DNA of 64,000 nucleotides from Candidatus Methylomirabilota bacterium (lineage in GTDB: Bacteria; Methylomirabilota; Methylomirabilia; Rokubacteriales; CSP1-6), in assembly GCA_035457825.1 (NCBI GenBank), contig DATIAY010000122.1:9147-73146 (forward strand), given 5' to 3'. The position numbers and the translations under genes were made by a program. The first letter of the stretch is position 1. Each line of letters begins with the position of its first letter. Shown here piece by piece: positions 5,403 through 45,123 of this stretch. The notes beneath the pieces were generated by a model, which saw only the letters and a list, made by a program, of their open reading frames with translations, did not search any database and was not told the origin of the DNA.

Positions 5403-6101
5403 ATGGACCGCACCCAGGTCGTCGAGCCCCTCAAGCGCCAGCGCCTCGTGGACGAGGCGACGAAGGCCCTGCGAGAGGCTATTCTGAGCGGGCGATTCCC
5501 TGAGGGCACGCGACTGCGTCAGACGGATCTCGCGGACCGGCTGCGGATCAGCCGCACGCCGATCCGCCAGGCGCTGGTACGGCTACAGCACGAGGGGCTC
5601 GTCCAGCTCCTGCCCGCGAGCGGCGTGCGGGTGACGGTGCTCGACCTGCACGAGGGCGCCGAGCTCTATGACTTGCGGGAGGTCCTGGATGGGTTGGCCG
5701 CCCGCCTGGCGGCTACCCGCGCGACGGCAGCCGCTCTGGCCCGGATCGAGCGGGCGCTGGCCCGGATGCGCCAGTGCCTCGAGCGGAACGATGCGAATCG
5801 GTGGTTCGCAGCCCACGTGGCGTTCCACGACGAGATCTTTCAGGCCGGCGGCAACGCGCGACTGCAATCGCTCTCGGCCGTGGTGAGGCTGAGCATCCAG
5901 CGGTTTCACCCGCTCTTGCTCACGACGCCACATCGGTTAGAGGACGCGTATCGCGAGCACCAGGGCATCGGGGAGGCCATCGCGGCCCACGACGCGGCGG
6001 GCGCGGAGCGGCTGGCCCGCCTGCACATCACCAACGCCAGGGCCATCGTGCTGGCCACCATGGCCGGCCAGAAAGCCTCCGATGGCGCTGTTCAAGGCTG
6101 A
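5403..6101 (+). CDS. GntR/FadR-family transcriptional regulator, 232 aa
   Basis: N-terminal winged HTH (LRQTDLADRLRISRTPIRQALVRLQHEGLV) and a C-terminal FCD-like all-helical domain. Only the last 232 codons of track ORF 3549..6101 are credible. Confidence 0.85.
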   Translation: MDRTQVVEPLKRQRLVDEATKALREAILSGRFPEGTRLRQTDLADRLRISRTPIRQALVRLQHEGLVQLLPASGVRVTVLDLHEGAELYDLREVLDGLAARLAATRATAAALARIERALARMRQCLERNDANRWFAAHVAFHDEIFQAGGNARLQSLSAVVRLSIQRFHPLLLTTPHRLEDAYREHQGIGEAIAAHDAAGAERLARLHITNARAIVLATMAGQKASDGAVQG

Positions 6102-6363: not shown

Positions 6364-7586
6364 GCGAACCAGCGGCCCGGCTGATCGCTCCCTGGACCGA
6401 GTGGGAGCGTCGTCACACCAAGGGACGCCGACTGCTGGAGGCGGGCACCTTCGCGCTCACGGAAGGCGCCATCGCCGCGGGCTGCCGCGTCTTTGCCGGC
6501 TATCCGATCACCCCGGCCACCGACATCGCCGAGTACATGTCCAAGCGGCTCCCCCAGGTGGGCGGCTACTACATGCAGGCCGAAGACGAGCTGGCCGGTA
6601 TGCACATGTGCGCGGGGGCCAGCCTGGGCGGGCTCAAAGCCATGACCGCAACCTCGGGACCCGGCTACACGCTCATGCACGACGCCTACGGCTGGGCCAT
6701 CACCAACGAGATTCCGCTGGTGGTCGTGGACGCCATGCGAGTGGGGCCGATCAGCGGCATCACCGGCGCGCCCGGGCAGGGCGAGTTCTACATCGCCCGT
6801 TACGCCTCGCACGGGGGCAACTTCGAGACCATCGTGCTCTCCCCGTCGTCCGTGCAGGAGGCGTTCTGGCTGACCATCGACGCCTTCAACTTGGCCGAGC
6901 GCTTCGGCACGCCGGTGACGATCCTCACCGACCAGGTGGTCTCCGACATGTGGGAGGATCTGTTCATCCCCGACGACTACACCGAGCTCGACTTCGTGGT
7001 GCCCCGCAAGGCGAATCTCACGATGCCCTTCTTTCCGGTCGGTAGCGATGCCATCGACGTGCCGCCCAACATCATCGGCCGCGGCACTGGGGTCTGCGTG
7101 TCCGCCTACACCCATACGGAGGAAGGCTACGACATCGAGGAGATGGAGGCCCAGTGGGCCCAGACGCACCGCCTGATCAACAAGATCCGCCACCACCGCA
7201 GCGAGCTCACGCGCTACGAGACCGTGGGGACCGACGATGCCGACGTGGTGGCGGTGGCCTACGGGGCCGACGCCCGCACCGTGAAGACGGCGGTACTGGA
7301 GGCGCGGGCCCGCGGGCTCCGGGCTGGCTTCGTGCGCCCGATCACGCTGTGGCCGTTCCTCGACGAGCTCTTCGCCGCCGACCGTCATTACGTGGTCTGC
7401 GAGCTCAACTACGACGGCCAGCTCGTCCGCGAGGTCATGCGGGCGGCGCCGGATTCGCGCAAGGTGCACTTCATGGGCAAGAGCGCCGAGCTCCACACGG
7501 TGAGCGAGGTGGTGGCGGCCCTGGAGGGTGTCGCCCAGACCGGGCGCATCCCCGAGCTTCCCTACATCTGGACGGAGGTCCGCTGA
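6360..7586 (+). CDS. 2-oxoacid:ferredoxin oxidoreductase alpha subunit
   Basis: Contains FAGYPITPATDIAEYM..MQAEDELAGMHMCAGASLGGLKAMTATSGPGY. The start is internal to track ORF 6132..7586. Confidence 0.85.
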   Translation: MSEPAARLIAPWTEWERRHTKGRRLLEAGTFALTEGAIAAGCRVFAGYPITPATDIAEYMSKRLPQVGGYYMQAEDELAGMHMCAGASLGGLKAMTATSGPGYTLMHDAYGWAITNEIPLVVVDAMRVGPISGITGAPGQGEFYIARYASHGGNFETIVLSPSSVQEAFWLTIDAFNLAERFGTPVTILTDQVVSDMWEDLFIPDDYTELDFVVPRKANLTMPFFPVGSDAIDVPPNIIGRGTGVCVSAYTHTEEGYDIEEMEAQWAQTHRLINKIRHHRSELTRYETVGTDDADVVAVAYGADARTVKTAVLEARARGLRAGFVRPITLWPFLDELFAADRHYVVCELNYDGQLVREVMRAAPDSRKVHFMGKSAELHTVSEVVAALEGVAQTGRIPELPYIWTEVR

Positions 7587-8428
7587 TGAATCCCCTGGCC
7601 AAGAAATACCTGAGACCGAGCCAGATCCCCACCAAGGCCTGCCACGGTTGCGGGATCGGCATGATCGAGAACTGGCTCCTGCAGGCCATCGACGAGCTGG
7701 GGCTCAAGCAGGAGGACGTCGTCTTCGGCACCGGCATCGGCTGCGTGGGCCGGCAGACGTTCGCCACCTGGGGCGGCGACAACTTCGGCGCCACCCACGG
7801 GCGAGCCCTGGCTGTGGCTACCGGTGTCAAGCTCGCGCAACCCGAGCGCCGAATCCTGGTGGTGGTGGGCGACGGCGACGCCGCGTCGATTGGCACCTCG
7901 CATCTCATCCACGCGGCTCGCCGCAACCTCGGCGTGACCGTGATCTGCGAGGACAACATGGGCTACGAGTCCACCGGCGGGCAGTTCTCCCCGACCACGC
8001 CGGCAGGATACGTCACCAACTCCAGCCCCTACGGGATGGTCGAGCCCTCCTTCGATCCCTGCGACGTGGTGAAGGCGGCCGGGGCTACCTTCGTGGCCGA
8101 GACCACCGCCACCCAGTGGCACCAGACCGTCAAGGTGGTCAAGAAGGCGCTGCAGAACGAGGGATTCTCCTTCGTCCACGTGCGCTTTCCGTGCAACGAG
8201 AACTTCGGCGCCTACGCCCTGGGCACCCGGGACACGCTCAAGAACCTCGAGTGGATCTACGAGCACACCCAGGGACGCAAGGCCGACGGCAGCGCCACGG
8301 ATTTCACGTGGGAGACCGGCATCAAGCACGATGCTTCCAACAGCCGGCCGGAGTTCACCCGGCTGCTACGCGACATGAACGCTCGGGTCCAGGCTGACCT
8401 CGCCAAGAAGACGGCGGCCAAGGCCTGA
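7586..8428 (+). CDS. 2-oxoacid:ferredoxin oxidoreductase beta (TPP-binding) subunit
   Basis: Contains CHGCGIG.., GIGCVGR and the GDGDAASIG TPP motif. TGATG overlap with the alpha subunit. Confidence 0.85.
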   Translation: MNPLAKKYLRPSQIPTKACHGCGIGMIENWLLQAIDELGLKQEDVVFGTGIGCVGRQTFATWGGDNFGATHGRALAVATGVKLAQPERRILVVVGDGDAASIGTSHLIHAARRNLGVTVICEDNMGYESTGGQFSPTTPAGYVTNSSPYGMVEPSFDPCDVVKAAGATFVAETTATQWHQTVKVVKKALQNEGFSFVHVRFPCNENFGAYALGTRDTLKNLEWIYEHTQGRKADGSATDFTWETGIKHDASNSRPEFTRLLRDMNARVQADLAKKTAAKA

Positions 8429-8976
8429 TGGCCGCCCGCGGCCGGACCCGCACCGAGATCCTCATCTCCGGCTTCGGCGGCCAGGGCGTGATCCGCATGG
8501 GCCAGATCATCGGGCTGTGCGCGATCAAGCAGGGCCACCGGGTGACGATGCTCAAGAGCCACGGCACCGAGACCCGGGGCGGCTACGTGCGGGCCCAGCT
8601 CGTGATCGCCCCGCAGTACGTCGACAGCCCCGTGGTGGAGAATGCCGACGTATTCGTGGCCTTCTCGGCGCCGGCCTACCGGAAGTTCTACGATCTGTGC
8701 CGTGGCAAGATCCTCTATGACCCCGAGATGGTGAGCGAGGTCCGGACCGAAGCGCCCGAGCGCCACGTGGCCGTGCCGGCCACCCAGCTCTCCAAGGAGC
8801 GATTCGGCAAAGAGCTCTTTGCCAACATGATCATGCTCGGGGCGCTCACGCGGCTGAGCGGTATGGATTACGCGGCGATGAAGCAGGCCATGCTGGAGAT
8901 CATTCCGCGCTTCCACGAGCAGAACCTGGCCGCGCTCGAGGCCGGCCACACGCTTGCCACCCTCGCCCCCGCCTGA
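8428..8976 (+). CDS. 2-oxoacid:ferredoxin oxidoreductase gamma subunit
   Basis: ILISGFGGQGVIRMGQIIG..SHGTETRGG is typical of the gamma subunit. 1-nt overlap with the beta subunit. Confidence 0.85.
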   Translation: MAARGRTRTEILISGFGGQGVIRMGQIIGLCAIKQGHRVTMLKSHGTETRGGYVRAQLVIAPQYVDSPVVENADVFVAFSAPAYRKFYDLCRGKILYDPEMVSEVRTEAPERHVAVPATQLSKERFGKELFANMIMLGALTRLSGMDYAAMKQAMLEIIPRFHEQNLAALEAGHTLATLAPA

Positions 8977-10573
8977 CGTGCCCCTGCGCGCGCCCCGCCG
9001 CTGGCACGGCGTCTGGCCGGCGCATCTGCCGTTGACGCTGGACTATCCGCGCGTGCCCGCCTGGTGGCTGCTCGAGCGCAACCTGGCGCGCTTTGCCGAC
9101 CGGGTGGCGCTCCGCGAGCTCGATCCCGAGACCCTGGCCGAAGGACGGACGCTGACCTACCAGGCGCTCTGGCGGGCCGCGCGCGGGGCGGCCACCGGAC
9201 TGCGGGGCGCCGGCGTCGAGCCGGGTATCCGGGTGGCCTACTGTCTGCCCAACGGGGCCGACCTCGTGATTGGCTACTACGCGACGTGGATCGCCGGCGG
9301 CGTGGTGGTGCCGGCCAACCCGGGCGCGCGCGAAGCCGAGCTCGTCCAGCAGCTCGGTGACGCCGACGTCGCGCTCGTGGTCGGAGCGTCGGGCAGCGTG
9401 GCCCAGGCGGCGGCGAGCCGGCTCGGGGTCCGGTTCATGGACGTTGCGAGCTTTCGCCGCCTGGCCGAGCTGTCCCCCGCAGAGCCGGTGTCCGGCACCC
9501 CCGAGGACGACGTGGCCGTGCTCCTCTATACCGGCGGGACGACGGGGACGCCGAAGGGCGCGATGCTCAGCCACCGCAACCTGGTGGTCAACACGATCCA
9601 GTTCGCCGAGTGGTACACCTTCGCTCCCGGCGCGGAAACCGCGGTGTGCGCGCTGCCGCTCTACCACTCGGGCGGGATGTCGGGGGCGATGAATGTCCCG
9701 CTCTACGCGGGAGCCACCTGTCTCGTGCTGGCCCGCTTCAGCGCGGCGGCGGTGGCCCGCGCCATCACCCGCTACCGGGCCACCCGCCTCTTCGGGGTGC
9801 CCACGATGTTCATCGCGCTGCTCAACGACGAGGACGGCCGGCGGGCCGACTACTCGGCGCTGCGCGCCTGCCGCACCAACGCCGCGCCGCTGCCGCCGGC
9901 GGTGAAGGCGGCGTTCGACGCGCTGGTGGGGCGCGAGGTCCTGATCGAGGGGTACGGGCTGACCGAGACGAGCCCGCTGACGCACGCCAATCCCATCGGC
10001 CGCGCCAAGGCGGGCTCGATCGGCGTGCCCTTGCCCGACACCGACGCGCGGATCGTCGACGTGGATCGGGGCGTGGATGTGGCGGCCGGGGAGGCCGGCG
10101 AGCTGCTGGTCTCTGGGCCCCAGGTGATGCTCGGGTACTGGAGACGGCCGGCGGAAACGGCTCAGGCGCTGCAGGACGGCTGGCTCCACACCGGCGACAT
10201 TGCCCGCATGGATGACGAGGGGTATTTTGTCATCGTCGATCGCAGCAAGGACCTGATCAACACCGCCGGCTTCAAGGTCTGGCCCCGCGAAGTGGAAGAG
10301 ACGCTCTACCTGCACCCGGCGGTGAAAATGGCGGCCGTGGTCGGGGTGCCTGACGATTACCGGGGCGAGGCCGTCAAGGCCTACGTCGTACTCCGGGACG
10401 GAGCCGGGACGGCCCCGAGTGCCGAGGCGATCATCGAGTTCTGCCGGCAACGCCTCACCCCCTACAAGGCGCCGCGACTGGTCGAGTTCCGGACGGAGTT
10501 GCCCATGACGACCACCGGCAAGCTGCTCCGCCGTGAGCTGCGCCGCGAGGTCTCGCTGAGAGGAGAGCCATGA
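8954..10573 (+). CDS. AMP-dependent acyl-CoA synthetase/ligase (long-chain-fatty-acid-CoA ligase-like)
   Basis: Contains LLYTGGTTGTPKGA, GYGLTETSP, GWLHTGDIARMDDEGYF and a C-terminal TGKLLRRELR. TTG start at 8954; GTG at 8978 is an alternative. Confidence 0.85.
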   Translation: MPPSPPPDVPLRAPRRWHGVWPAHLPLTLDYPRVPAWWLLERNLARFADRVALRELDPETLAEGRTLTYQALWRAARGAATGLRGAGVEPGIRVAYCLPNGADLVIGYYATWIAGGVVVPANPGAREAELVQQLGDADVALVVGASGSVAQAAASRLGVRFMDVASFRRLAELSPAEPVSGTPEDDVAVLLYTGGTTGTPKGAMLSHRNLVVNTIQFAEWYTFAPGAETAVCALPLYHSGGMSGAMNVPLYAGATCLVLARFSAAAVARAITRYRATRLFGVPTMFIALLNDEDGRRADYSALRACRTNAAPLPPAVKAAFDALVGREVLIEGYGLTETSPLTHANPIGRAKAGSIGVPLPDTDARIVDVDRGVDVAAGEAGELLVSGPQVMLGYWRRPAETAQALQDGWLHTGDIARMDDEGYFVIVDRSKDLINTAGFKVWPREVEETLYLHPAVKMAAVVGVPDDYRGEAVKAYVVLRDGAGTAPSAEAIIEFCRQRLTPYKAPRLVEFRTELPMTTTGKLLRRELRREVSLRGEP

Positions 10574-11544
10574 CGACACGCCTGCGTGCTCCCATCATCC
10601 TCGTGGCCACAGCGTTGCTGCTGGCCGGCCTGATGCGGGTTGAGGCTGGCGCCCAGGAGCGCTTCCCCAGCCGGCCCATCGACTTCATCGTCCCCTGGGG
10701 CACCGGTGGCGGGGCCGACGCGATGGCTCGTCAGCTGGGCGCGCTCGCCCAGCCCCTGCTCGGCACGGCCTTGCCCGTCTCCAATGTCCCCGGCGCCTCC
10801 GGCAACACGGGGCTGGCCCAGCTTTTCACGGGCAAGCCCGATGGCTACACGGTCGCCGTGTACATCCAGGACACGCTGATGACCATCCCCATGGGGCTCG
10901 CCCGCCACAAGGTCGAGGACCTGGACTGGATCACGCGGACCCAGGTCGCCGACTCCTTCCTCTTCGTCAAGGCCGACGGGCCGTTCAAGACGATCCAGGA
11001 GCTGCTCAAGCACGCGCAGGCCAACCCCGGCAAGCTGCGAGTGGCGGCCACCGGCTTCGGCAGCGTGGACGACGTCACCGTGCGGTATCTCGAGAAGAAG
11101 GGCTACAAGCTGACGACGGTGCCGTACCCCAAGCCGGGCGAGCGCTACGCGGCCACGCTGGGCGGCCACGCCGAGGTGCTCTATGAGCAGGCTGGTGACG
11201 TGCTGCAGTACCTCAAGGCCGGGCAGCTGAAGCCGCTGGTGATCTTCGCCGAGAAGCGCCACCCCGCGTTCGCGGAGGTGCCGACGTCCAAAGAGCTGGG
11301 CCTGGACATCACGCTGCCGCAGTTCCGTGGCGTGGTGGCCCGGAAAGGGACGCCCGCCGATCGCGTGACGGCGCTGGCCGCGGCCTTCCGCACGGTCATG
11401 GACACGCCCCAGTGGAAGAAGTTCGCCGACGAGTGGTACATGAGCCCGGAGAGCTATCAGGGACCCGAGCAGTTCACCCGCTGGGTGAGCGGTGAGGTGG
11501 CGACTCTGGAGCAGCTCGTGAAGGAGTTCGGTCTCCGCAAGTAG
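10570..11544 (+). CDS. tctC: Tripartite tricarboxylate transporter substrate-binding protein (Bug/TctC family)
   Basis: Signal peptide plus FPSRPIDFIVPWGTGGGADAMAR.., characteristic of Bug/TctC. Confidence 0.85.
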   Translation: MTTRLRAPIILVATALLLAGLMRVEAGAQERFPSRPIDFIVPWGTGGGADAMARQLGALAQPLLGTALPVSNVPGASGNTGLAQLFTGKPDGYTVAVYIQDTLMTIPMGLARHKVEDLDWITRTQVADSFLFVKADGPFKTIQELLKHAQANPGKLRVAATGFGSVDDVTVRYLEKKGYKLTTVPYPKPGERYAATLGGHAEVLYEQAGDVLQYLKAGQLKPLVIFAEKRHPAFAEVPTSKELGLDITLPQFRGVVARKGTPADRVTALAAAFRTVMDTPQWKKFADEWYMSPESYQGPEQFTRWVSGEVATLEQLVKEFGLRK

Positions 11545-11546
11545 TC

Positions 11547-12053
11547 ATGACCCGCCTGGCGCCGGCCCTGGCGCCCCTCGCCGGCCTCGTGCTCGCGCTC
11601 GGGCTGCTGGCCGCCACGCGCGGGCTCGACGATCTCGCGCGCGAGGGCCAGCTCGGCCCCGGCTTCTGGCCGCGGCTGGTGCTGGTGGGACTCGCGACCG
11701 TGTGCGCGCTGCGCGTCGTCGTGGCGTGGCGTGGCGCGTGGGCCCACCGGGTTGCCGACCCCGATGCGGCGCCGCTGGCCCGAGGGCGACTGGCGATCGC
11801 CGTGGGCCTGATCCTGCTCTATGTGATCGCGGTTCCGGTCCTGGGCTTCCCTCTCGCGACTGCCGGCTTCATCGCCGCGTTCATGATCGTGGCCGGCGCC
11901 CGGCAGGCGAGGGGCGTGGCCGCGGCGGCGGTGGGCGGCACCATCGGCTTGCTCTACCTGTTCGTCAGGGTCGTGTACCTGCCGCTGCCCAAGGGCGCCG
12001 GCCCGCTCGAGGCGGTGACGCTGTCACTCTATCGCCTGCTCGGGATCTTTTGA
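11547..12053 (+). CDS. tctB: Tripartite tricarboxylate transporter small membrane subunit TctB
   Basis: 168 aa with four hydrophobic helices (GPGFWPRLV..), positioned between tctC and tctA. Confidence 0.75.
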   Translation: MTRLAPALAPLAGLVLALGLLAATRGLDDLAREGQLGPGFWPRLVLVGLATVCALRVVVAWRGAWAHRVADPDAAPLARGRLAIAVGLILLYVIAVPVLGFPLATAGFIAAFMIVAGARQARGVAAAAVGGTIGLLYLFVRVVYLPLPKGAGPLEAVTLSLYRLLGIF

Positions 12054-12054
12054 G

Positions 12055-13599
12055 GTGGCCGAGAGCCTAGCCTATCTCGGCGTCGGCTTCCAGAACGCCT
12101 TCGCGCCCGTGAACTTCCTCATGGTGGTGCTGGGCCTGGCCATCGGGATCCTCGCCGGCGTGCTGCCAGGCATCACCATGCTGAACTCCATCGTGCTGGT
12201 GCTGCCTTTCACCTATCTCATGGGCATCGTCCCGGCGCTGCTGCTGATGATCGGCATCTACTGCGGCGGGGTGTTCGGGGGCTCCATCACCGCGATCCTC
12301 TTCAACATCCCGGGCGACCCCATGAACGTGCCCACGGCGTGGGAGGGCCACCCGCTCAATCGCCAGGGCCGGGCCCGCTACGCGCTCGGCCTGGCCATCA
12401 TGGCCTCGGCCATCGGGGGGCTCGCCAGCGCGCTCTGCCTGGCGTTCTTCGCTCCGCCCTTCGCCCGGTTCGCGCTCAGCTTCTCGACAGTGGAGTTCTT
12501 CTCCGTGGTCGTGTTCGGGTTGGCCAGTGTCTCGGTGCTCGGGCACGCCTCGGCCACCGGAGCGCTCATCTCGCTGCTGGCCGGGATGTTCCTGGGCACG
12601 GTGGGGACCGAGGCCCAGTACGGCGTCGAGCGCTTCACCTTCGGCGTGCCATTCTTGAGGACGGGCGTGGACTTCGTCACGGTCCTCATCGGGCTCTTCG
12701 CCATCGGCGAGATCCTCGACCAGCTCGCCGGGCCCTCGACCCAGACGGCAGCGGTCACGAAGACCCGGTCGGTGCCTCGGCTGCCGCTGCTCGACCTGTG
12801 GCCGCTCCGGGGGTCGCTGATCCGAGGGACAGCCGTGGGGATCGCGGTGGGAGGACTGGCTGGCGCCGGGGCGACGGTGTCGTCTTTCGTCGCCTACGGC
12901 CTGGAGAAGCAGGTCTCACGCGACCCCGAACGCTTCGGGAAGGGCCACGCCGGCGGGCTGGTGGCCGCCGAGAGCGCCAACAACGGCTCCACGGGCGGGG
13001 CCATGATCCACCTGCTGACGCTCGGCATCCCCGGCAGCGCGGCCACCGCCGTGATGATGGGCGTGTTCCTCATCCACGGTATCCAGCCGGGCCCCTTGCT
13101 CTTCACGCGGCAGCCGGAGCAGGTCTACACGCTGTTCGCCGGCATGATCCTGGCCAACGTGCTCATGATCGGGCTGGGGTTTCTCGCCGCGGTGGTCTTC
13201 GCCGCGCTGATGCGGGTGCCGGCCTCCATCCTCAACACCCTCATCGTAGTCTTCTGCTTCATCGGCGCCTTCGCGCTGCGCAACGACATGGCCGACGTCT
13301 GGCTCACGATGCTCTTCGGCGTGCTGGGCTTCGTCATGCGCCGCTGGGATCTGCCGGTGCCCCCGATGGTCATGGGCATCATCCTGGGCCCGATGGCCGA
13401 GCAGTACTTCCTTACCTCGATGGTGTCCCACGGCAACGATCTGTCGGTGTTCGTCACGCGCCCGGTGAGCGCGGTAGCCCTGGGGTTGGCGGCGGCGGCG
13501 GTCGCGTGGGCGGTGTGGCGGAGCCAACGACAGCCGGTTGGCGAAACTGCCGAAGTGCCGAATCCGACGAAGGGGTCGCCAACCCCAGGTGCGCGTTAA
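12055..13599 (+). CDS. tctA: Tripartite tricarboxylate transporter large permease TctA
   Basis: 514-aa polytopic protein with GVLPGITMLNSIV.. and GIPGSAATAVMMG, typical TctA motifs. Confidence 0.85.
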   Translation: MAESLAYLGVGFQNAFAPVNFLMVVLGLAIGILAGVLPGITMLNSIVLVLPFTYLMGIVPALLLMIGIYCGGVFGGSITAILFNIPGDPMNVPTAWEGHPLNRQGRARYALGLAIMASAIGGLASALCLAFFAPPFARFALSFSTVEFFSVVVFGLASVSVLGHASATGALISLLAGMFLGTVGTEAQYGVERFTFGVPFLRTGVDFVTVLIGLFAIGEILDQLAGPSTQTAAVTKTRSVPRLPLLDLWPLRGSLIRGTAVGIAVGGLAGAGATVSSFVAYGLEKQVSRDPERFGKGHAGGLVAAESANNGSTGGAMIHLLTLGIPGSAATAVMMGVFLIHGIQPGPLLFTRQPEQVYTLFAGMILANVLMIGLGFLAAVVFAALMRVPASILNTLIVVFCFIGAFALRNDMADVWLTMLFGVLGFVMRRWDLPVPPMVMGIILGPMAEQYFLTSMVSHGNDLSVFVTRPVSAVALGLAAAAVAWAVWRSQRQPVGETAEVPNPTKGSPTPGAR

Positions 13600-13910: not shown

Positions 13911-16900
13911 TCAGGCGCTCCCTCGTGCGGTGTCGGGGCCGGCGAGGGCGCGCACCTGCCGGACCACCGGCGACCCTTCCAGGCTCGCGCGGAGCGCGGG
14001 ATCGCTCAGGCCGGCCAGGACCCTGTCGATCACGCTCCGCGCGGCGATGGCGGCAGAGCGGGCCGCATCGGGCCGCCCGCGCTCGAGCTCCAGCCGGGCC
14101 AGGGCCGCGTGGGTCCTCCAGAGCTGCGGCGGGTTGCCGATCTGCTCGGCGATGGCGAGGGCCTGGCGCAGCGCCTGCTCGGCATCGTCCCACCGCCTGC
14201 GGCTCCGCGCGATCTCGCCGCTCAGGCGCCAGCCCTTGACGAGATTCTTGCGGGCGCCGGTGCGGGCCGCCCGCTCGAGGCAATGCTCGGCCTGCTGGCG
14301 GGCTCGATCCAGATCGCCCCGGGCGAGCCACAGCTCGCCCTGGCTCGCCGCCAGGCGACTCAGGTAGCGGAAGCGCATCCACTCGCTGGTGGCCGGGTCG
14401 TTCGCGTAGCGCTCGATTCCCTCGAAGAGCTCGGCGGCCAGCGCGAGATCGCCCTTGGCCAGGAACACGTCTCCCAGGTTGATCTCGGCGTTGGGGATGG
14501 TGCCGTCGTCCTTGCGGCGGCGTCCGACCTCGGCGCTGCGCTGGTTGAGATCCTCGGCCGTGTCGAGGTCGCCGAGCTCCAGGTGGAGCCAGCCCAGGCA
14601 GTTGAGCAGGCGATGATGGATGGCCTCGTCGCCCAGCTTCTCGGCCAGCGCCAACCCCTCCCGGTACCCGACCTGCGCGGCGTCGTAGTCGCCCTTGCCG
14701 ATCTGCGCCAGGCCCCTCACGAACAGGCCGAACAGCAGTGGATAGAGGAGCCCGTGGCCGCGGGCGATGGCGACTCCCTCGGCGTGCAGGCGGTCCGCGG
14801 TGGAGAATTCGCCCTCCCAGTTCCAGGTGAGGCCTGCCGCGGAGAGCGCCAGCGAGTGATTCACGTGATCGCCGGCGCTGCGGCCGGTCACGATGGCGCG
14901 CTCGAGCTGGGCGCGGCCTTCCTGCCACGATCCGGTGACGGCCTGGATGAAACCCATCGTGAAGTGGCTGCGCGCCAGAGCCGACTCGGCTCGCACCGGC
15001 TCGCCCACCTCGATAGCTTGCCGGGCGTGGGCGACGGCGCCCTTGAGATCATGGCCCCACATGGCGGCCCAGGCGAGCGCCGCGAGCGCCGCGCTCTCCC
15101 GGACACGATCTCCCGCCTCGCGAGCCAGCGTCCGCAGACGCTCGGCCTCGGCCCGCGACCGCTCGAAGTCGCTGACCACGAAGTGCAGGTTGGACCTGGC
15201 GTCATGGATGGCCATGACGGCCGTGAGATCGACGCCGGCCGGCTGGCGCTGGGCAGCCTCCAGCGCTTCGTCGTAGAGGGTCAGCGCCTCGCGGGTGGCG
15301 AAGCTCTCGGCCGCCTGGCCCGCCGTGGCCAGCAGATATTCGAGGGCCTTGGGCCAGTCTTCGGCCCGCGAGAAGTGGTGGGCGAGCAGGCCGTAGTGCT
15401 CGGACAGGCGATCGGCGTTCAGGTCCTCGATCGTCGCGCCGATCCGCCGATGCAGGTCGCGACGCTCGGCTGCCGGCAGCGTGTCGTAGGCAACCTGATG
15501 AGTCAGGGCATGCTTGAACGCGTACATGGGCTCGGGGAAGAGCGTCTTCTCGTACACGAGCTCACCCGCCGTCAGCTCCCCTAGCGCCCGCTCAACGTGC
15601 TCGGGCGGCCCGCCCACGAGGTCGAGCAGGCGCCGGCCGAAGTCGCGACCGATGACCGAGGCCGCCTGCAGCGTGCTGCGGGCCGCCGGGTCGAGGCGGC
15701 CGATGCGGGCCAGGATCACGTCCTGGACGGTTTCGGGCACCACGACCTGGTCGAGCGCGCGGGCCAGCGTCACCCGGCCGCGCTCGCGGCGGAGGGAGCC
15801 GCCTTCGAGCAACGACCGCACCAGCTCCTCGACGAAGAACGGATTGCCCTCGGCCCGGCCGGCGATGAGCGACTCGAGTTCGGGCGGCAGCTCCTCGGCG
15901 CCGAGCACGTCGCGAGCGATCCGCGCGCTGTCGGCCGTGGAGAGCGCGGTGAGGGCCAGGCGCGTGGTGACCGTCCGATCGCCGAGCGGCAGCGTGTACC
16001 CAGGACGGCAGGTGAGGATCAGGAGCAGGCGCTTGCCGGCGGTCCGGTCGGCCAGCGCGGCGATCCACCGGGCCGTGGCCGGGTCCATCCAGTGGGCGTC
16101 CTCCAGGACGAGCACCTGGGGACGGCGCTCGGCCGCGCGCTCCAGCACGCGGTGGCAGGCGGTGACGACCTCGGCGTGACGGAGCTTGGCGTCCATGGCC
16201 GCCACACTGGGATCACCGGGATCTACCGAGAGGAGATAGCGCAGGAACGGCAGCGTGGGGCGCAGGTCCTCGCCCAGGCGCAAGATCCGGGGCTCGAGCT
16301 TCTCGATGACGACGGCCTCGGGGTCCGTCTCTTCGATCCGGTACGTCCGGCGCGTCATCTCGATCACGGGGTGGAAGGGGCGCGCACCCCCGAAAGGCAG
16401 GGCATGCCCGTCCGCCCACGTGCAGACGCCGGCCAGCCGCCGCCGGAGCTCGCTCAGCAGGCGGGACTTGCCGATGCCGGCCTCGCCGACGATCGTGATC
16501 ACCTGGCCCTGGCCGGCCCGGACCTGCTCGAATCGTTCGATGAGCAGCGCCAGCTCGCGGTCGCGCCCGACGAAGCCGGCGAGAGCGGGGTCAGCCTGGC
16601 CCGTGAGCCGGAACATGCTGTCGCTGGCCGGTAGCGGTATCAGGTCGAACGCGCGCGCCAGGAAACCCGCGGCTGCCCGGCTCACCACGATGCCACCAGC
16701 TTCGGCCCGCTCCAGCAGCGCCGCCAGCGCGGTCCAGCCCGAGGCGCGCCCGGCGGCGTCGATGGTGAGGGTGTCGACCGTCTGGACGACTGTGACCGGC
16801 TGGGTGTGGATGGCGATCTTCACGTCCGGGCGGTTCTCGTCTTCGCTCCTGGCCCGGCTGGCCAGAGCCCGGAGGGCCAGGGCGGCGTTGGCCGCGCGCC

Positions 16901-18164
16901 GAGGGGCATCCTCGGTCGGCTCCAGGCCGAAGGCGGCGACCATCTCGGTGATCGTGAGCTCCTGAGGACTCCCACCGAATGCCCGGACCTTTTCCACCAC
17001 CGCGTCGAGCGCCCGTGAGGCCTCGGACGTCGCCGCGTCGGCTCGAACCAGGACGAGGCGGACCTGCAACAGCGTGACCCGTGCCTCCCACTGCCGGGAG
17101 GTCGGGGCGGCGGCCGATGGAGCCGGCGCAAACGGGCGTGGCGTACGAGGGGGCCGGCCGCCCCGGCGGCGGGCCGGTGGTCCCTCGGCGTCCAGACCAT
17201 GACGTTCCAGACGGTAGCGCAGCGTGTTGCGAGGAAGCCCGAGCCGCTCGGCCGCCCGGGAGATGTTCCAGCCGGTGGCCGAGAGAGCGTCCAGGAGCTG
17301 GGCCCGCTCGTTCGCCTCGTCGAGCCCGCCAGCATCGGCCCGCGAGGCCGGGACCGCGGAACCGGCGGCGGGGGTCGAAGGCAGGCCCAGGTGGCCGGCC
17401 TCGAGCGTGCGCGCGTCGGCCAGGAGCGCGGCTCGCTCCATGACGTTCGCCAGCTCGCGGACATTGCCTGGCCACGCGTACTCCTGCAACGCGGTCCGCG
17501 CGCTCGGGGATAGCGTCTTCGGGGCCAGGCCGTAATCCTGGCAGGCCCGGGCCAGGAAGTGCTCGGCCAATTTCTCGACGTCGCCGCCGCGCTCGCGCAG
17601 CGGGGGCAGCTTCAGGGTGACGACGGCCAGGCGGTGGTAGAGATCCTCGCGGAAGCGGCGGGCTCGCACCGCGGCGGTCAGGTCCTCGCTGGTCGCTGCC
17701 ACCACCCAGACGTCGATCGGCTCGCTGCGCGTGCTTCCCAGCCGCCGCACGGAGCGCTCCTCGATCGCGCGCAGCAACTTGGATTGCAGGCCCACCGGCA
17801 ACAGCCCGACCTCGTCGAGGAAAAGGATGCCGCCGCTGGCCGTCTGGAAAAGCCCGGGCTTGGCCTGGCGCGCGTCGGTGAAGGCTCCCCGTTCGAAGCC
17901 GAACAGCTCGGCCTCGAGCAGGGTCTCGGGAATCGCCGCGCAGTTGACGTCGACGAACGGCCCGGCGGCACGGATACCGGTGCGGTGGATGGCCGCCGCG
18001 AGCAGGCCCTTGCCGGTGCCCGTTTCCCCGAGGATCAGGATCGGAGGTGGCCGCCGCATCGGGCCGCTGGGCGGGCGCAGCACCCGGACGACCTGATCAC
18101 GTAAGGTCGCCATGGCGGAGCTGTCACCGAGCAATTCGGCCAGCGCGGTCATGACGGGCGTCAT
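13911..18164 (-). CDS. Giant regulator: sigma-54 interaction AAA+ domain + Fis-type HTH + degenerate cyclase-homology domain + AAA_16/STAND P-loop NTPase + TPR array
   Basis: Walker A GETGTGKG, GAFTDA loop (17871-17888), Walker B ILFLDEVG and WPGNVRELANV. HTH is NISRAAERLGLPRNTLRYRLERHGL. Second P-loop is GEAGIGKS, followed by about 500 aa of TPR-like helices. ATG 18164 is preferred because the codons from 18266 to 18165 are AT3-rich and look non-coding; the track start is 18266. Confidence 0.8.
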   Translation of the reverse strand: MTPVMTALAELLGDSSAMATLRDQVVRVLRPPSGPMRRPPPILILGETGTGKGLLAAAIHRTGIRAAGPFVDVNCAAIPETLLEAELFGFERGAFTDARQAKPGLFQTASGGILFLDEVGLLPVGLQSKLLRAIEERSVRRLGSTRSEPIDVWVVAATSEDLTAAVRARRFREDLYHRLAVVTLKLPPLRERGGDVEKLAEHFLARACQDYGLAPKTLSPSARTALQEYAWPGNVRELANVMERAALLADARTLEAGHLGLPSTPAAGSAVPASRADAGGLDEANERAQLLDALSATGWNISRAAERLGLPRNTLRYRLERHGLDAEGPPARRRGGRPPRTPRPFAPAPSAAAPTSRQWEARVTLLQVRLVLVRADAATSEASRALDAVVEKVRAFGGSPQELTITEMVAAFGLEPTEDAPRRAANAALALRALASRARSEDENRPDVKIAIHTQPVTVVQTVDTLTIDAAGRASGWTALAALLERAEAGGIVVSRAAAGFLARAFDLIPLPASDSMFRLTGQADPALAGFVGRDRELALLIERFEQVRAGQGQVITIVGEAGIGKSRLLSELRRRLAGVCTWADGHALPFGGARPFHPVIEMTRRTYRIEETDPEAVVIEKLEPRILRLGEDLRPTLPFLRYLLSVDPGDPSVAAMDAKLRHAEVVTACHRVLERAAERRPQVLVLEDAHWMDPATARWIAALADRTAGKRLLLILTCRPGYTLPLGDRTVTTRLALTALSTADSARIARDVLGAEELPPELESLIAGRAEGNPFFVEELVRSLLEGGSLRRERGRVTLARALDQVVVPETVQDVILARIGRLDPAARSTLQAASVIGRDFGRRLLDLVGGPPEHVERALGELTAGELVYEKTLFPEPMYAFKHALTHQVAYDTLPAAERRDLHRRIGATIEDLNADRLSEHYGLLAHHFSRAEDWPKALEYLLATAGQAAESFATREALTLYDEALEAAQRQPAGVDLTAVMAIHDARSNLHFVVSDFERSRAEAERLRTLAREAGDRVRESAALAALAWAAMWGHDLKGAVAHARQAIEVGEPVRAESALARSHFTMGFIQAVTGSWQEGRAQLERAIVTGRSAGDHVNHSLALSAAGLTWNWEGEFSTADRLHAEGVAIARGHGLLYPLLFGLFVRGLAQIGKGDYDAAQVGYREGLALAEKLGDEAIHHRLLNCLGWLHLELGDLDTAEDLNQRSAEVGRRRKDDGTIPNAEINLGDVFLAKGDLALAAELFEGIERYANDPATSEWMRFRYLSRLAASQGELWLARGDLDRARQQAEHCLERAARTGARKNLVKGWRLSGEIARSRRRWDDAEQALRQALAIAEQIGNPPQLWRTHAALARLELERGRPDAARSAAIAARSVIDRVLAGLSDPALRASLEGSPVVRQVRALAGPDTARGSA

Positions 18165-18285
18165 CCTATCGCGAAGTCGCGGGCCACGCCGGGAAACTGA
18201 CGAAACCGCCGAATCGGCAGTTTGCTCGGGTTGCATGCCCGAGGCTGAACAGCTATAAATGCTCATCGTCTAAGGCAATCGGGTC

Positions 18286-18301
18286 TGGCACCAAAGCTGC
18301 A
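18286..18301 (+). promoter_or_regulatory. Sigma-54 (-24/-12) promoter upstream of the SBP56/mtoX operon
   Basis: TGGCAC-caaag-CTGCA against the consensus TGGCAC-N5-TTGCA. Lies 86 nt upstream of ATG 18387, which is preceded by AAAGGAGGGA. Confidence 0.6.
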
Positions 18302-19704: not shown

Positions 19705-20403
19705 ATGATGCGGATTGCCACGCGCGCGGCCCTGGCGCTCCTCGTGGCCGGCCTGCTGGCGCCGGCTGCGTCGGCGCACGGGCCGCGCGGCTCGTCCAAC
19801 TCCACCGGCGCCGATCTGGGATATCCGCGCTTCGACTACCAGCCTCCGGCGCCCGGGACCTACGCGCTGCCGGCCGTCAAGGCGGCCGCCGACGGGCAGG
19901 TGGTGGACGCCACCAGCACCCGGCGCCGCCTGCACGACTTGATGGGCGACCGCATCGTCGTGCTGAGCTTCATCTCGACCCGCTGCAGCGACGCCCAGGG
20001 TTGTCCGCTGGCCACCGCCGTCCTGCACCAGCTCCGGGCCGCCGCGGCCAGCGACCCGGCGCTGGCGCGCCGGCTCCGCCTCGTGACGCTGAGTTTCGAT
20101 CTCGCTCACGACACGCCCACCGTCCTGGCCCGCTTCGTCCCGCCGGCTCGTAACGGGCGGGCGAGTCCCTGGACGGCCGTGGTGCCGACGTCGGAGGGGG
20201 AGCTCTCGTCGATCCTGGCCGCCTATGGCCAGCCGGTCGGGCCTCGGGTCGTGGAGGCGCCGCCCACCCATCTGCTCCGCGTCTACCTGATCGACCGCCA
20301 GCGCGAGATTCGCAACGTGTACGGCCTCGACTTCCTGGACCCCCGCCTGCTGCTCAACGACGTGCGCACGCTGATCCTCGAGGAGCAGGGCCGGCGGCCA
20401 TGA
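19705..20403 (+). CDS. SCO1/SenC-family copper chaperone-like thioredoxin-fold protein
   Basis: Signal peptide, with VVLSFISTRCSDAQGCPLATAVL (a cysteine pair in the SCO position) in a thioredoxin-fold context. Confidence 0.7.
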   Translation: MMRIATRAALALLVAGLLAPAASAHGPRGSSNSTGADLGYPRFDYQPPAPGTYALPAVKAAADGQVVDATSTRRRLHDLMGDRIVVLSFISTRCSDAQGCPLATAVLHQLRAAAASDPALARRLRLVTLSFDLAHDTPTVLARFVPPARNGRASPWTAVVPTSEGELSSILAAYGQPVGPRVVEAPPTHLLRVYLIDRQREIRNVYGLDFLDPRLLLNDVRTLILEEQGRRP

Positions 20404-21605
20404 CCACCGGGCGGCGGGTGATGACAGGGGTGCTGGGGGCGCTGGCTCTGGCCGTGGTGGCTCTGGCCACCGACGCCAGCGAGCAGGCGGGCGACAGCGG
20501 GGCTGACCGGCGGGTGGCCGCGGCCCTCGCCCGCATCGCCACGCCGCCCCTGGGACTGCCACCGGTTCCCGTGCCCGCCGACAACCCGCCGACACCGGCC
20601 AAGGTGGCGCTCGGCCGCAAGCTCTTCTTCGACCGTCGCCTGTCCCACAACGGCACGATGTCGTGCGCGATGTGCCACATCCCCGAGCAGGGCTTCACGA
20701 ACAACGAGCTGGCCCGTCCGGTCGGCATCGAGGGCCGCAGCCTGCGCCGCAACGCGCCGACCCTGCTCAACGTGGCCTACGTCGAGCGGCTCTTCCACGA
20801 CGGGCGGGAGATCGCGCTGGAGACCCAGGTCATCGGTCCCCTGGTCGAGCGCAGCGAGATGGGCAATCCCTCGATCGGCCACGTCATCGCCCGCATCCGC
20901 TCGCTGCCCGACTACGCCGGCCTCTTCGAGCGCGCGTTCGGCGCCAGCCCGAGCCCCGACCGCATCGGCCAGGCCATCGCCAGCTACGAGCGCACGCTGC
21001 TCTCGGGCCGCTCGTCCTTCGACCACTGGTACTACGGCGGTGAGCCCTCCGCGGTCGGGCCCCGGGCGGTGGAGGGGTTCCGCCTGTTCACCGGCAAGGC
21101 CGGCTGCGTGTCCTGTCACACGATCGGGGCCCGTCACGCGCTTTTCAGCGACGGCGCCTTCCACGACACGGGCATCGGCTACTACAACGCCGTCGTCCGC
21201 CCGCGCCAGCGCACGCCGGTGCCGGTGGAGCTGGCCCCCGGGGTCATCGCCCAGCTCCCGCCGGAGGCCGTGGAGAGCGTGGGCGACCCGGAGGCCGCCG
21301 ATCTCGGACGGCACGAGGTGACTCTGGTTCCCGCCGACCTGTGGAAATTTCGGACGCCGACCCTGCGCAACGTGGCCCTGACCGCGCCGTACATGCACGA
21401 CGGCTCGCTGCGCACGCTCCCGGACGTGGTGCGGTTTTACAATCGGGGCGGACAGCCTCACCCGGGCCTCGATCCCCGGCTCCGTCCGCTCGGGCTCACC
21501 GAGACCGAGATGGCCGCGCTGGTGGAGTTTCTCGAAGCCCTCACCGGGACGGATGTGGCGCGCCTCATCGAAGAGGCCTGGACACCGGGGCCGCCGGGAA
21601 ACTGA
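20400..21605 (+). CDS. Di-haem cytochrome c peroxidase / MauG family protein
   Basis: Two CxxCH motifs (CAMCHIPEQGF, CVSCHTIG) and PTLRNVALTAPYMHDGSL. 4-nt overlap with the SCO1-like gene. Confidence 0.85.
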   Translation: MTTGRRVMTGVLGALALAVVALATDASEQAGDSGADRRVAAALARIATPPLGLPPVPVPADNPPTPAKVALGRKLFFDRRLSHNGTMSCAMCHIPEQGFTNNELARPVGIEGRSLRRNAPTLLNVAYVERLFHDGREIALETQVIGPLVERSEMGNPSIGHVIARIRSLPDYAGLFERAFGASPSPDRIGQAIASYERTLLSGRSSFDHWYYGGEPSAVGPRAVEGFRLFTGKAGCVSCHTIGARHALFSDGAFHDTGIGYYNAVVRPRQRTPVPVELAPGVIAQLPPEAVESVGDPEAADLGRHEVTLVPADLWKFRTPTLRNVALTAPYMHDGSLRTLPDVVRFYNRGGQPHPGLDPRLRPLGLTETEMAALVEFLEALTGTDVARLIEEAWTPGPPGN

Positions 21606-44461: not shown

Positions 44462-44477
44462 TGGCACGGACATTGCC
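44462..44477 (+). promoter_or_regulatory. Sigma-54 (-24/-12) promoter
   Basis: TGGCAC-ggaca-TTGCC lies immediately after the M24 stop, 84 nt upstream of ATG 44560. Confidence 0.65.
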
Positions 44478-44559: not shown

Positions 44560-45123
44560 ATGGAGACCAAGACCGACCGAGAGAACGCCGGGCCGAGTCC
44601 GTTCAGCCGTCCTCCTCAGCCGAAGCCGACTGCTGCGTTCGGGGGCGGCCCTGCCGCCATCGACACTGCGCGGCAGTCGACTCCGGCTGGTGCGGCGGGT
44701 GCGAGCCCGTCAGCCGACGAGCGCAGGACGCTGGAAGCCCAGCGCCGCGGTGGCGGCCAGTGGTTCTACTGGATAGCCGGGCTCTCCTTGATCAATGCGG
44801 TCCTTGCCCTCACCGGCCAGGACTGGCACTTCATTCTCGGCCTCGGGGTCACCCAGCTCGTCCAGGGGTTGTCTCAGCAGGCCGGGGCGGCCGGGATCAA
44901 GGCGGGCCTCGTGGGCCTGGCCGTGATCGGACTCTTCGCCGTCCTCGGGCAGCGCGCGATCCTGGGACACCGCTGGGCGTTCGTCCTGGGCATGGCGCTC
45001 TTCGGGCTCGACGGCGTCATCTTCCTGGTGGTCCAGGACTGGGTGGGCGTGGGGTTCCATGCGTTCGCGCTGGTGATGATCCTGCGCGGGTACCTGGCGG
45101 CCCGACGGCTTCCGGCGCCCTGA
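44560..45123 (+). CDS. Hypothetical membrane protein (disordered N-terminus plus about 4 TM helices)
   Basis: GGGAGGG RBS and GC3-rich codons. Hydrophobic helices include WFYWIAGLSLINAVLAL and GLVGLAVIGLFAVL. No family recognised. Confidence 0.55.
   Translation: METKTDRENAGPSPFSRPPQPKPTAAFGGGPAAIDTARQSTPAGAAGASPSADERRTLEAQRRGGGQWFYWIAGLSLINAVLALTGQDWHFILGLGVTQLVQGLSQQAGAAGIKAGLVGLAVIGLFAVLGQRAILGHRWAFVLGMALFGLDGVIFLVVQDWVGVGFHAFALVMILRGYLAARRLPAP

Follow-up and report, generated by a model that had tools for sequence, protein, structure and literature searches.

The window analysed here, a stretch of 64,000 nucleotides from a Candidatus Methylomirabilota bacterium, encodes a regulator in which a complete enhancer-binding protein (EBP) module of the sigma-54 type is followed, in the same polypeptide, by a class III nucleotidyl-cyclase fold, a STAND NTPase and a long TPR superhelix. 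The parts (EBP core, Fis-type helix-turn-helix (HTH), class III cyclase fold and a MalT/PH0952-like STAND-TPR block) are all known, and it is their combination that is uncharacterised. We favour, with some confidence, the reading that this protein is a one-component sigma-54-dependent activator on a STAND chassis, in which the STAND switch would control assembly of the EBP ring and the target would be the divergent SBP56 operon. The wider proposal is that sigma-54 activators include an uncharacterised class whose EBP ring is governed by a STAND switch and TPR sensor, with two ATPases in series, a fossil cyclase as structural adaptor, and paralogues each beside their own sigma-54 operon; we regard it as evenly balanced between true and false.

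The Regulator and Its Domains

The regulator lies in an uninterrupted open reading frame (ORF) of 1451 codons on the minus strand (13911..18266), as seen in the ORF list and its translation, and its residues are numbered here from the ATG at 18266, the start of this longest ORF. The actual start is almost certainly Met35 (18164) or Met39 (18152), giving a predicted protein of ~1413-1417 aa, because most homologues begin at query residue 35 or 39 in the alignment (42/120 at each). An earlier note on this DNA, written from the sequence alone, had placed the start at 18164 and the length at roughly 1400 aa, and both agree with the homologue-supported start, from which the protein has ~1,415 residues. 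The G+C content at third codon positions (GC3) is 0.88 throughout the ORF, with 0.52 at second positions (GC2), in a window of ~70% G+C, and this high GC3 matches the real genes of the window. Every motif quoted in the earlier note was found in the translation, including GETGTGKG (80-87), GAFTDA, ILFLDEVG (147-154), WPGNVRELANV (265-275), VTLLQVRL (397-404), ITEMVAAFG (439-447) and GEAGIGKS (594-601). Its domain order, running from EBP AAA+ through Fis-type HTH, degenerate cyclase and AAA_16/STAND to TPR, is borne out by Pfam, PDB profile search and Foldseek. The Pfam search that it had proposed matched Sigma54_activat, AAA_lid_14, HTH_8, AAA_16, TPR_MalT and TPR_12 (Table 1).

The sigma-54 AAA+ signature is strong, and the EBP core carries Walker A GETGTGKG, Walker B FLDEVG, FREDLYHRL and WPGNVRELANV, with the arginine fingers and sensor II that accompany Walker A/B in the PF00158 domain of sigma-54 activators. 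The AAA+ domain begins ~10 residues past the regulator start, leaving no room for an N-terminal regulatory domain. Across alignments of 121 and 151 sequences, the EBP Walker A, Walker B, FREDLYHRL and WPGNVREL motifs are conserved. The L1 loop reads GAFTDA in ~104/121 close homologues and in 121/151 aligned sequences (the query and 150 representatives), and GAFTGA in the remainder. Since ~80% of the family share GAFTDA and the rest keep GAFTGA, the variant reads as a fixed family trait, not as decay. The earlier note had reported GAFTDA instead of GAFTGA; the motif is indeed there, but it is no mark of degeneracy, being the family consensus and occurring in working EBPs. A regulome study of D. 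vulgaris places GAFTDA among the variants said to maintain the activation ability of EBPs, and assigns a regulon and target operons to DVU2106, which has GAFTDA (PMC4641369). VfmH also has GAFTDA; a pull-down found no sigma-54 interaction for it, the effect of the variant being unknown (PMC10714721). Downstream of the core, the recognition helix of the HTH, PRNTLRYR(L/M), is near invariant across paralogue groups in an alignment of residues 316-360.

The HTH is joined to the rest of the protein by a linker of variable length, the site of the suspected chimeric junction. This segment is one of the most weakly conserved, at 18-55% identity between paralogues in every comparison and 77% with the closest orthologue. 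Beyond it, Pfam gave no Guanylate_cyc match in residues 360-580 searched alone. The NCBIfam model of the TOMM kinase/cyclase fusion (TIGR03903) aligns from residue 431 onward, and a profile of 26 family members matches only class III cyclases among 177,635 PDB sequences (CyaB 3r5g, 4.7e-5; Cya2 2w01, 7.6e-4). The AlphaFold model of residues 372-580 is confident (mean predicted local distance difference test, pLDDT, 91.3), and a Foldseek search of the PDB with it returns class III adenylyl or guanylyl cyclases at each of the top 50 ranks, with E-values of 4.6e-12 to 7e-9 and template modelling (TM) scores up to 0.79. In addition, two distant family members, P0263 (1406 aa) and P0293 (1379 aa), have a Guanylate_cyc domain that Pfam scores as significant (1e-18 and 2.9e-13), exactly between HTH_8 and AAA_16. 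The degenerate class III cyclase-homology domain postulated by the earlier note is thus upheld by the PDB profile, by the structure prediction for which that note had called, and by relatives with an intact domain, Pfam itself being silent.

At the catalytic positions of this domain, Q, T, T and A replace metal Asp1, metal Asp2, the transition-state Asn and the transition-state Arg, respectively. These four columns are variable across the 150 representatives, and D, D, N and R are kept only in P0263, an EBP fusion, and P0182, a stand-alone protein; P0293 keeps both metal Asp residues, with R and E at the Asn and Arg positions. We use the label pseudo-cyclase because all four catalytic positions are replaced and the columns vary in the family: the class III cyclase fold is present, but the domain is, by its residues, catalytically dead and no enzymatic member of the class. 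No other folded part of the protein is so poorly conserved (32-48% identity vs 68-78% for the EBP core). P0263 has the canonical metal Asp residues (LFGD, GDG) together with NIAARL, as well as a GAFTDA loop, and may be an EBP that is also active as a cyclase.

The STAND module consists of an AAA_16 P-loop domain, a helical arm and a winged helix, with the Walker A motif GEAGIGKS noted above and a Walker B motif LVLEDAHW; a NACHT P-loop was also matched by Pfam. For residues 560-1451 the AlphaFold model reaches a pLDDT of 90.3 and a predicted TM score (pTM) of 0.83, and its best Foldseek match by far is PH0952 (6mfv, E 1.1e-15, 737 aligned columns), with Apaf-1, CED-4, Avs3 and MalT (8bob) at lower ranks. 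This relation was not seen by phmmer of the STAND-TPR part against PDB sequences, which returned TPR proteins only. The protein has the nucleotide-binding oligomerisation domain (NOD) core of P-loop, helical and winged-helix parts, and the layout of effector, NOD and C-terminal repeat sensor that characterise STAND proteins, so the AAA_16/STAND NTPase and the ~500 aa of TPR described in the earlier note hold, given the Pfam AAA_16 and TPR_MalT matches, the confident model and the match to 6mfv. Across the family, Walker A is conserved as GE(P/A)G(I/V)GKS and Walker B as (V/I/L)ED(L/A)HW. Because the EBP and STAND motifs are all conserved, both ATPase sites appear to be under selection.

PH0952, a STAND protein with a TPR sensor, is predicted to be a regulator and has its DNA-binding effector at the N-terminus (PMC6468293). 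The resting form of STAND proteins is a closed, ADP-bound monomer that the arm and sensor keep shut; once an inducer binds the sensor, nucleotide exchange and multimerisation follow and the effector is activated (PMC6468293). The earlier note had described the domain order of the regulator as inverted. The domains do stand in the order it gave, but N-terminal effectors are the norm in STAND proteins, with PH0952 as a precedent, so the arrangement is better read as the ordinary STAND order of N-terminal effector, NOD and C-terminal sensor.

Target Promoter and Candidate Enhancer

The region of 222 bp between the regulator and the first divergent gene contains a -24/-12 element, TGGCACCAAAGCTGCA, facing the SBP56 operon, with GG at 18287-88 and GC at 18299-300, the GG/GC spacing of the sigma-54 promoter class. 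The start site predicted from it is at ~18311, ~75 nt before the ATG at 18387. The whole window has two sigma-54-like sites with <=1 mismatch, vs 0.73 expected. Between the window and the orthologous loci L001 and L005 the hexamers are identical, and the N5 spacer differs (CAAAG, TGCGG and CCGGA). Of 14 family loci, 10 carry a -24/-12 element with <=2 mismatches between the regulator gene and its divergent neighbour, on the neighbour's strand. Those 10 elements are among just 21 such matches in 480 kb of strand sequence, the rate elsewhere being 0.023 per kb per strand.

Upstream of the promoter lies a candidate enhancer, or upstream activating sequence (UAS), made up of repeated AAACTGNCG palindromic sites with three AAAC(T/C)GNCG half-sites at 18194, 18203 and 18215. 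It is centred ~95 bp upstream of the predicted start site, lies ~70 bp upstream of the -24 element, and abuts the regulator start codon. The half-site was found in 6/8 family loci first examined, with ~25-fold enrichment, and then in further loci; it recurs at the same place in most of them, sometimes as a perfect palindrome, TGACGAATTCGTCA. By count there are 9 half-sites in 2.24 kb, vs 0.16 per kb elsewhere, for a motif that was defined post hoc. A UAS, ~95 bp, and then a -24/-12 element would be the classic EBP arrangement, and both an HTH and a UAS are found here in silico.

Between the candidate UAS and the -24 element there is an A+T-rich patch, CAGCTATAAATGCTCATCGT (window 18250-18270), which is partly conserved in L001 (CAGCTATAACTACATAT) and which could be a bending site of the integration host factor (IHF) type or the regulator's own -10 region; the ATG of the longest ORF (18266) falls within it. 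The sole other sigma-54-like site with <=1 mismatch in the window, TGGCACGGACATTGCC (44462-44477, plus strand), begins one base past the stop of a 435-aa ORF (43154-44461) and lies ~85 nt upstream of ORF 44560-45123, for which there was no Pfam match. The 435-aa ORF was considered as a second SBP56 and rejected, as it is unrelated despite its equal length. In several related loci, a conserved ORF of ~56 aa stands between the sigma-54 promoter and the SBP56 or Zn-alcohol dehydrogenase gene, on the minus strand (L003 ~5700-5810, L086 ~4700-4810, L089 3637-3807, L090 ~3700-3810). It has a hydrophobic segment, LG(Y/L)xGLFLIGS(L/I)SW(I/V/L)ADH, is called as a gene in L089 only, and is absent from the window locus.

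The Divergent Operon and Other Neighbours

The divergent operon comprises an SBP56-family gene, a gene of 232 aa and a MauG-like gene (Table 1). The gene order mtoX-SCO1/senC-mauG is that of the Cu-dependent methanethiol oxidase cluster of Eyice et al. (PMC5739008). At the position of the 232-aa gene, L003 and L089 have a clear SCO1-SenC gene. The divergent SBP56 partner is kept at L001 (84% identity), L005 (92%), L003 (56%) and L089 (57%). From this gene content and the promoter facing it, the regulator most likely turns on the neighbouring methanethiol-oxidase-type operon.

On the other side, a run of genes at 8428-13599 (plus strand) converges on the 3' end of the regulator. It encodes a protein like the gamma subunit of pyruvate-ferredoxin oxidoreductase (POR), an AMP-binding acyl-CoA ligase and TctC-TctB-TctA, a tripartite tricarboxylate transporter, and is not conserved beside the regulator at other loci. 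The window also holds a second EBP (48304-51057, minus strand; 917 aa) of conventional order, namely CHASE2, a coiled region, Sigma54_activat (4.7e-62), AAA_lid_14 and HTH_8. CHASE2 is a membrane sensor, and the protein is 40% identical to the EBP core of the regulator. A TPR/Sel1 protein (51073-52386) is encoded immediately upstream of it on the same strand.

Table 1. Features of the regulator locus, with positions and strands in the window.
Feature	Position	Strand	Evidence
Regulator gene	13911..18164	minus	ORF list and translation, GC3, homologue starts
EBP AAA+ core: Sigma54_activat (residues 49-218) and AAA_lid_14 (224-293)	17388..18122	minus	Pfam 7.5e-60 and 3.9e-23
L1-loop motif GAFTDA (127-132)	17871..17888	minus	Alignments of 121 and 151 sequences
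Fis-type HTH_8 (320-355)	17202..17309	minus	Pfam 5.6e-13, HTH alignment
Pro/Ala/Arg-rich linker, HTH to cyclase (359-394)	17085..17192	minus	Alignment of 26 family members
Pseudo-cyclase, class III nucleotidyl-cyclase fold (395-560)	16587..17084	minus	PDB profile, AlphaFold, Foldseek, catalytic columns
STAND NTPase module (565 to ~930)	15477..16574	minus	Pfam AAA_16 (565-750) 2.4e-25, AlphaFold, Foldseek
TPR/MalT-like superhelical sensor, ~26 paired helices (~931-1445)	13932..15476	minus	Pfam TPR_MalT 1.9e-19, TPR_12, AlphaFold, PDB TPR matches
Candidate UAS, inverted repeat 18183-18203/18214-18234	18183..18234		Inverted-repeat search, motif recurrence
Sigma-54 type -24/-12 promoter TGGCACCAAAGCTGCA (TGGCAC-N5-CTGCA)	18286..18301	plus	Motif search, orthologous loci, background rate
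Divergent gene 1: SBP56 family (methanethiol oxidase MtoX family), 435 aa	18387..19694	plus	Pfam SBP56 3.4e-52
Divergent gene 2: 232 aa, weak SCO1/SenC match	19705..20403	plus	Pfam SCO1-SenC 5.8e-4
Divergent gene 3: MauG-like di-haem cytochrome c peroxidase	20400..21605	plus	Pfam CCP_MauG 1.8e-50

Distribution and Origin of the Family

The regulator belongs to a large family. A word-indexed search gave >120 full-length homologues (~1,390-1,470 aa, 51-90% identity), which share its Pfam set and come from many different samples and sources. In an exhaustive search of 1.84 billion cluster representatives, the best 150 at 50% identity are co-linear with the regulator over the covered stretch, except P0182, a stand-alone cyclase-STAND without the EBP part; ~125 of these are full length (1260-1460 aa) and ~24 truncated. 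The E-value at rank 150 is still 1e-167, so the family must be much larger than 150 clusters. Databases label its members automatically as 'sigma 54-interacting transcriptional regulator' or 'NtrC family response regulator/TPR repeat protein', and no curated NCBIfam model spans the full regulator.

Named relatives come from Candidatus Methylomirabilota and Rokuibacteriota metagenome-assembled genomes (MAGs), and one Methylomirabilota MAG holds a 90-92% identical copy (L005/L007). A single-protein scan of GTDB genomes found five close loci, all in Rokuibacteriota or Methylomirabilota MAGs; the other matches are 25-36% identical (mostly 28-31%) and match only the cyclase-STAND part of the query, without having been inspected individually for an EBP part. 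The family appears to be concentrated in a phylum without cultured representatives, where it is probably a major regulatory device.

As the earlier note had said, the cyclase-AAA_16-TPR module is common on its own, with stand-alone proteins both in the same lineage and in other phyla. The C-terminal 1,080 residues of the regulator share 36% identity, across 570 residues, with a stand-alone Guanylate_cyc-AAA_16-TPR protein in L002. The most economical history, judged from these sequences, is that an EBP core and HTH joined the N-terminus of a cyclase-STAND-TPR protein, and that the cyclase then decayed in most descendants; the intermediate state would still be visible in P0263. Stand-alone Guanylate_cyc-AAA_16-TPR genes are also found beside or near family members (L002 2603-5719 and L085 1-1434, both on the minus strand), the L002 copy having an N-terminal zinc-ribbon-like CxxC...CxxC, and this suggests local duplication or functional pairing of both protein types. 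In the homologue at L008, from a Methylomirabilia MAG, a 1-nt frame change (7480-7700) interrupts a conserved FEQ..AGQGQ helix and leaves a 544-aa EBP-HTH-pseudocyclase ORF and a separate STAND-TPR frame. This was considered as a natural two-gene version of the system and rejected, given a 1-nt change inside a conserved helix, and the break is probably a sequencing error or a pseudogene.

Other paralogue groups have other neighbours. Some adjoin a 304-aa AurF-like/metal-hydrolase-like protein with OsmC (L084, L085, L088, L091 and probably L006), others a Zn-alcohol dehydrogenase with or without an aldehyde dehydrogenase (L086, L090), and the divergent unit of the L002 family member is the stand-alone cyclase-STAND. 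Because paralogue groups each sit beside their own divergent unit, the family would be one of dedicated local regulators.

Proposed Mechanism and Alternative Explanations

In the proposed mechanism, the HTH would bind the AAAC(T/C)GNCG palindromic repeats of the candidate UAS, which overlap the regulator's own 5' region, and the AAA+ ring would remodel the sigma-54 holoenzyme at the TGGCAC-N5-CTGCA promoter ~95 bp away, and so switch on the divergent SBP56(mtoX-like)-SCO1-like-MauG operon. This much of the mechanism has good support. At rest, the TPR sensor would keep the ADP-bound STAND core closed, as in MalT, PH0952, Apaf-1 and Avs proteins, until a bound ligand or partner let the STAND cores exchange ADP for ATP and multimerise. 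Ring assembly is the main point of control in EBPs, and for this reason STAND multimerisation is proposed to drive EBP ring formation: it would concentrate and orient the N-terminal EBP modules on the UAS until an active hexameric ring is formed. The STAND switch would in this way take over a step for which EBPs normally rely on N-terminal receiver, GAF or PAS domains. The pseudo-cyclase would be left over from the cyclase-STAND-TPR parent. Since cyclase domains of class III dimerise obligately, it probably survives as a dimerising or spacer module. As to the inducing signal, we can speculate that it is a small molecule of thiol, aldehyde or oxidant chemistry, because the operons encode a methanethiol-oxidase-type protein, OsmC, and alcohol and aldehyde dehydrogenases.

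Several points weigh against this mechanism. The step in which the STAND drives ring assembly is by analogy only, and a mismatch of stoichiometry is possible, as EBP rings are hexamers, cyclase folds dimers, and STAND proteins tetramers to open polymers. The HTH recognition helix and the half-site are nearly the same in paralogues with different operons (SBP56, AurF-like/OsmC, Zn-alcohol dehydrogenase), which leaves target specificity unexplained. Two of the 14 loci, L002 and L087, are without a -24/-12 element, and L003 and L086 have only GGCAT-N5-TTGCC, which at 3 mismatches is weak evidence. The enrichment of the UAS half-site is inflated, because the motif was defined after viewing the loci and several of these are orthologues. 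In the operon, the SCO1-SenC match of the 232-aa gene scores 20.3 bits, below the Pfam cut-off of 22.8. A search for an RpoN box, covering the 64-kb window, was negative, which is to be expected for a stretch of this length; the second EBP of the window, canonical in its order, is indirect support for sigma-54 in this genome.

The main rival to the STAND-assembly model is that the C-terminal cyclase-STAND-TPR block is a pure intramolecular inhibitor, which would cover the AAA+ domain, or the surface with which it contacts sigma-54, until a signal frees it, the STAND not driving oligomerisation at all. The GAF domain in NorR, the A-domain in XylR and DmpR, and PspA acting on PspF in trans are models for such negative control. 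It is established that EBPs lacking an N-terminal domain (PspF and HrpR/S, for example) tend to be constitutive and to be controlled by inhibition; here the long flexible linker would let the C-terminal block fold back on the AAA+ core, and STAND sensors are themselves autoinhibitory (PMC6468293). However, at least 150 clusters keep the Walker A and B motifs of the STAND, favouring a working nucleotide switch over a passive lid. We therefore consider a purely inhibitory block unlikely, if still a serious competitor to STAND-driven assembly. Much less room is left for a module that has lost its sigma-54 function owing to GAFTDA and acts as a sigma-70-type activator or repressor. EBP-like proteins that do not work with sigma-54 exist, TyrR, HupR and the NtrC of Rhodobacter capsulatus being models; here the second Gly of GAFTGA is replaced, and the negative pull-down of VfmH with the same loop (PMC10714721) points the same way. 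Against this stand the place of GAFTDA among the activation-maintaining variants and the regulon assigned to DVU2106 (PMC4641369), the ~80% of the family that share the loop with GAFTGA in the rest, the -24/-12 promoters at the expected place in 10/14 loci, and the intactness of every ATPase motif, all of which make loss of sigma-54 function very improbable.

A role in conflict with phages, as an Avs/NLR-like STAND protein whose TPR recognises a phage protein and whose effector happens to be an EBP module, is less probable still. The fold search does also match Avs3, Apaf-1 and CED-4, and the N-terminal effector-NOD-TPR layout is that of Avs proteins, but PADLOC gives only generic RtcR/PspF-type EBP models and a weak TPR match, with no Avs or bacterial NLR defence model. 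Moreover, the genes beside the regulator form metabolic operons that have sigma-54 promoters of their own and keep their synteny, and the best structural match falls in the PH0952/MalT transcription-factor branch. The last alternative is that the long ORF is an artefact, in which an EBP gene and a cyclase-STAND-TPR gene were merged by misassembly or by a missed stop or frameshift near the HTH/cyclase junction. Stand-alone Guanylate_cyc-AAA_16-TPR genes do occur in the same lineage, sometimes adjoining family members (L002, L085), and one related locus, L008, is split by a frameshift. Yet the same co-linear protein is found on hundreds of independent contigs, from many samples and assemblers, each keeping the linker junction; GC3 is uniform along the ORF, the junction is an in-frame linker of variable length, and the L008 break lies elsewhere, before the STAND P-loop. 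The merging of two separate genes, which the earlier note had named as the danger, is effectively refuted.

Comparison with Known Systems

The closest known EBPs by their N-terminal part are PspF and HrpR/HrpS, which likewise begin their AAA+ domain within ~10 residues of the N-terminus, have a Fis-type HTH and intact motifs, and act on a -24/-12 target with an upstream site. They have nothing beyond the HTH, and PspA or HrpV acts on them in trans, whereas the regulator has ~1,050 more residues in cis (pseudo-cyclase, STAND NTPase and TPR). The LevR-type EBPs of Firmicutes, in which a DNA-binding domain and AAA+ are followed by PRD/EIIA/EIIB regulatory domains, resemble the regulator in placing regulatory domains C-terminal to the sigma-54 AAA+. 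PRD modules are among the sensory modules of EBPs (PMC12316311). Unlike the regulator, LevR has its DNA-binding domain at the N-terminus and relies on phosphorylation of the PRDs by the phosphotransferase system (PTS), without a second ATPase, TPR or cyclase fold.

From the side of the STAND proteins, the transcription factors MalT, PH0952, AfsR/SARP-LAL and GutR share the STAND core and the TPR/SUPR sensor with the regulator, and PH0952 also has its DNA-binding effector at the N-terminus (PMC6468293). These have plain DNA-binding effectors (LuxR, ArsR, SARP) and work with the sigma-70 holoenzyme, whereas the effector of the regulator is itself predicted to be an ATP-driven, ring-forming machine acting on sigma-54. 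The cyclase-ATPase-TPR proteins (mycobacterial Rv0386-type, TIGR03903) are co-linear with the C-terminal 1,080 residues, which match TIGR03903 positions 333-1058 and are 28-31% identical to alphaproteobacterial proteins. Unlike these, the regulator has lost the catalytic cyclase residues, carries an EBP-HTH in place of an N-terminal zinc-ribbon, kinase or empty N-terminus, and has no C-terminal LuxR HTH. The divergent operon, in turn, has the same gene content and order (SBP56, SCO1-like, MauG-like) as the mtoX cluster of Eyice et al., which in Ruegeria shows methanethiol-inducible transcription via an IclR-type regulator (PMC5739008). Here and at no fewer than four related loci, an EBP-STAND regulator and a sigma-54 promoter take that place.

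Searches of open-access full texts found no account of a STAND-controlled sigma-54 activator fusion, although absence there is no proof. The earlier note's view that a fusion of this module behind an EBP core is not a described architecture is in line with this, yet the architecture is not rare and has been labelled automatically.

Significance

EBPs are known from textbooks for their modular order of sensor, ATPase and DNA-binding domain, and the control of ring assembly by the sensor is the central question of the field; STAND proteins such as MalT, Apaf-1, NLRs and Avs are the textbook case of oligomerisation triggered by a sensor. If the proposed reading is true, a natural fusion links these two fields, in which STAND/TPR replaces the N-terminal receiver, GAF, PAS or V4R domain as the control of ring assembly, and STAND hubs could nucleate an AAA+ ring. 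It would represent a compact system for the coupling of two ATPase cycles and would widen the known modes of sigma-54 control. The pseudo-cyclase, with its rare canonical relatives, shows cleanly how a structural module can arise by decay of an enzyme domain.

For the organisms themselves, the family would have expanded in Methylomirabilota/Rokubacteria into paralogues serving SBP56, AurF-like/OsmC and Zn-alcohol dehydrogenase operons, and the regulator would be the first candidate regulator of SBP56/mtoX-type genes in this uncultured phylum. Its conserved pairing with an mtoX-like operon offers a testable handle on methanethiol metabolism in soil Rokubacteria/Methylomirabilota.

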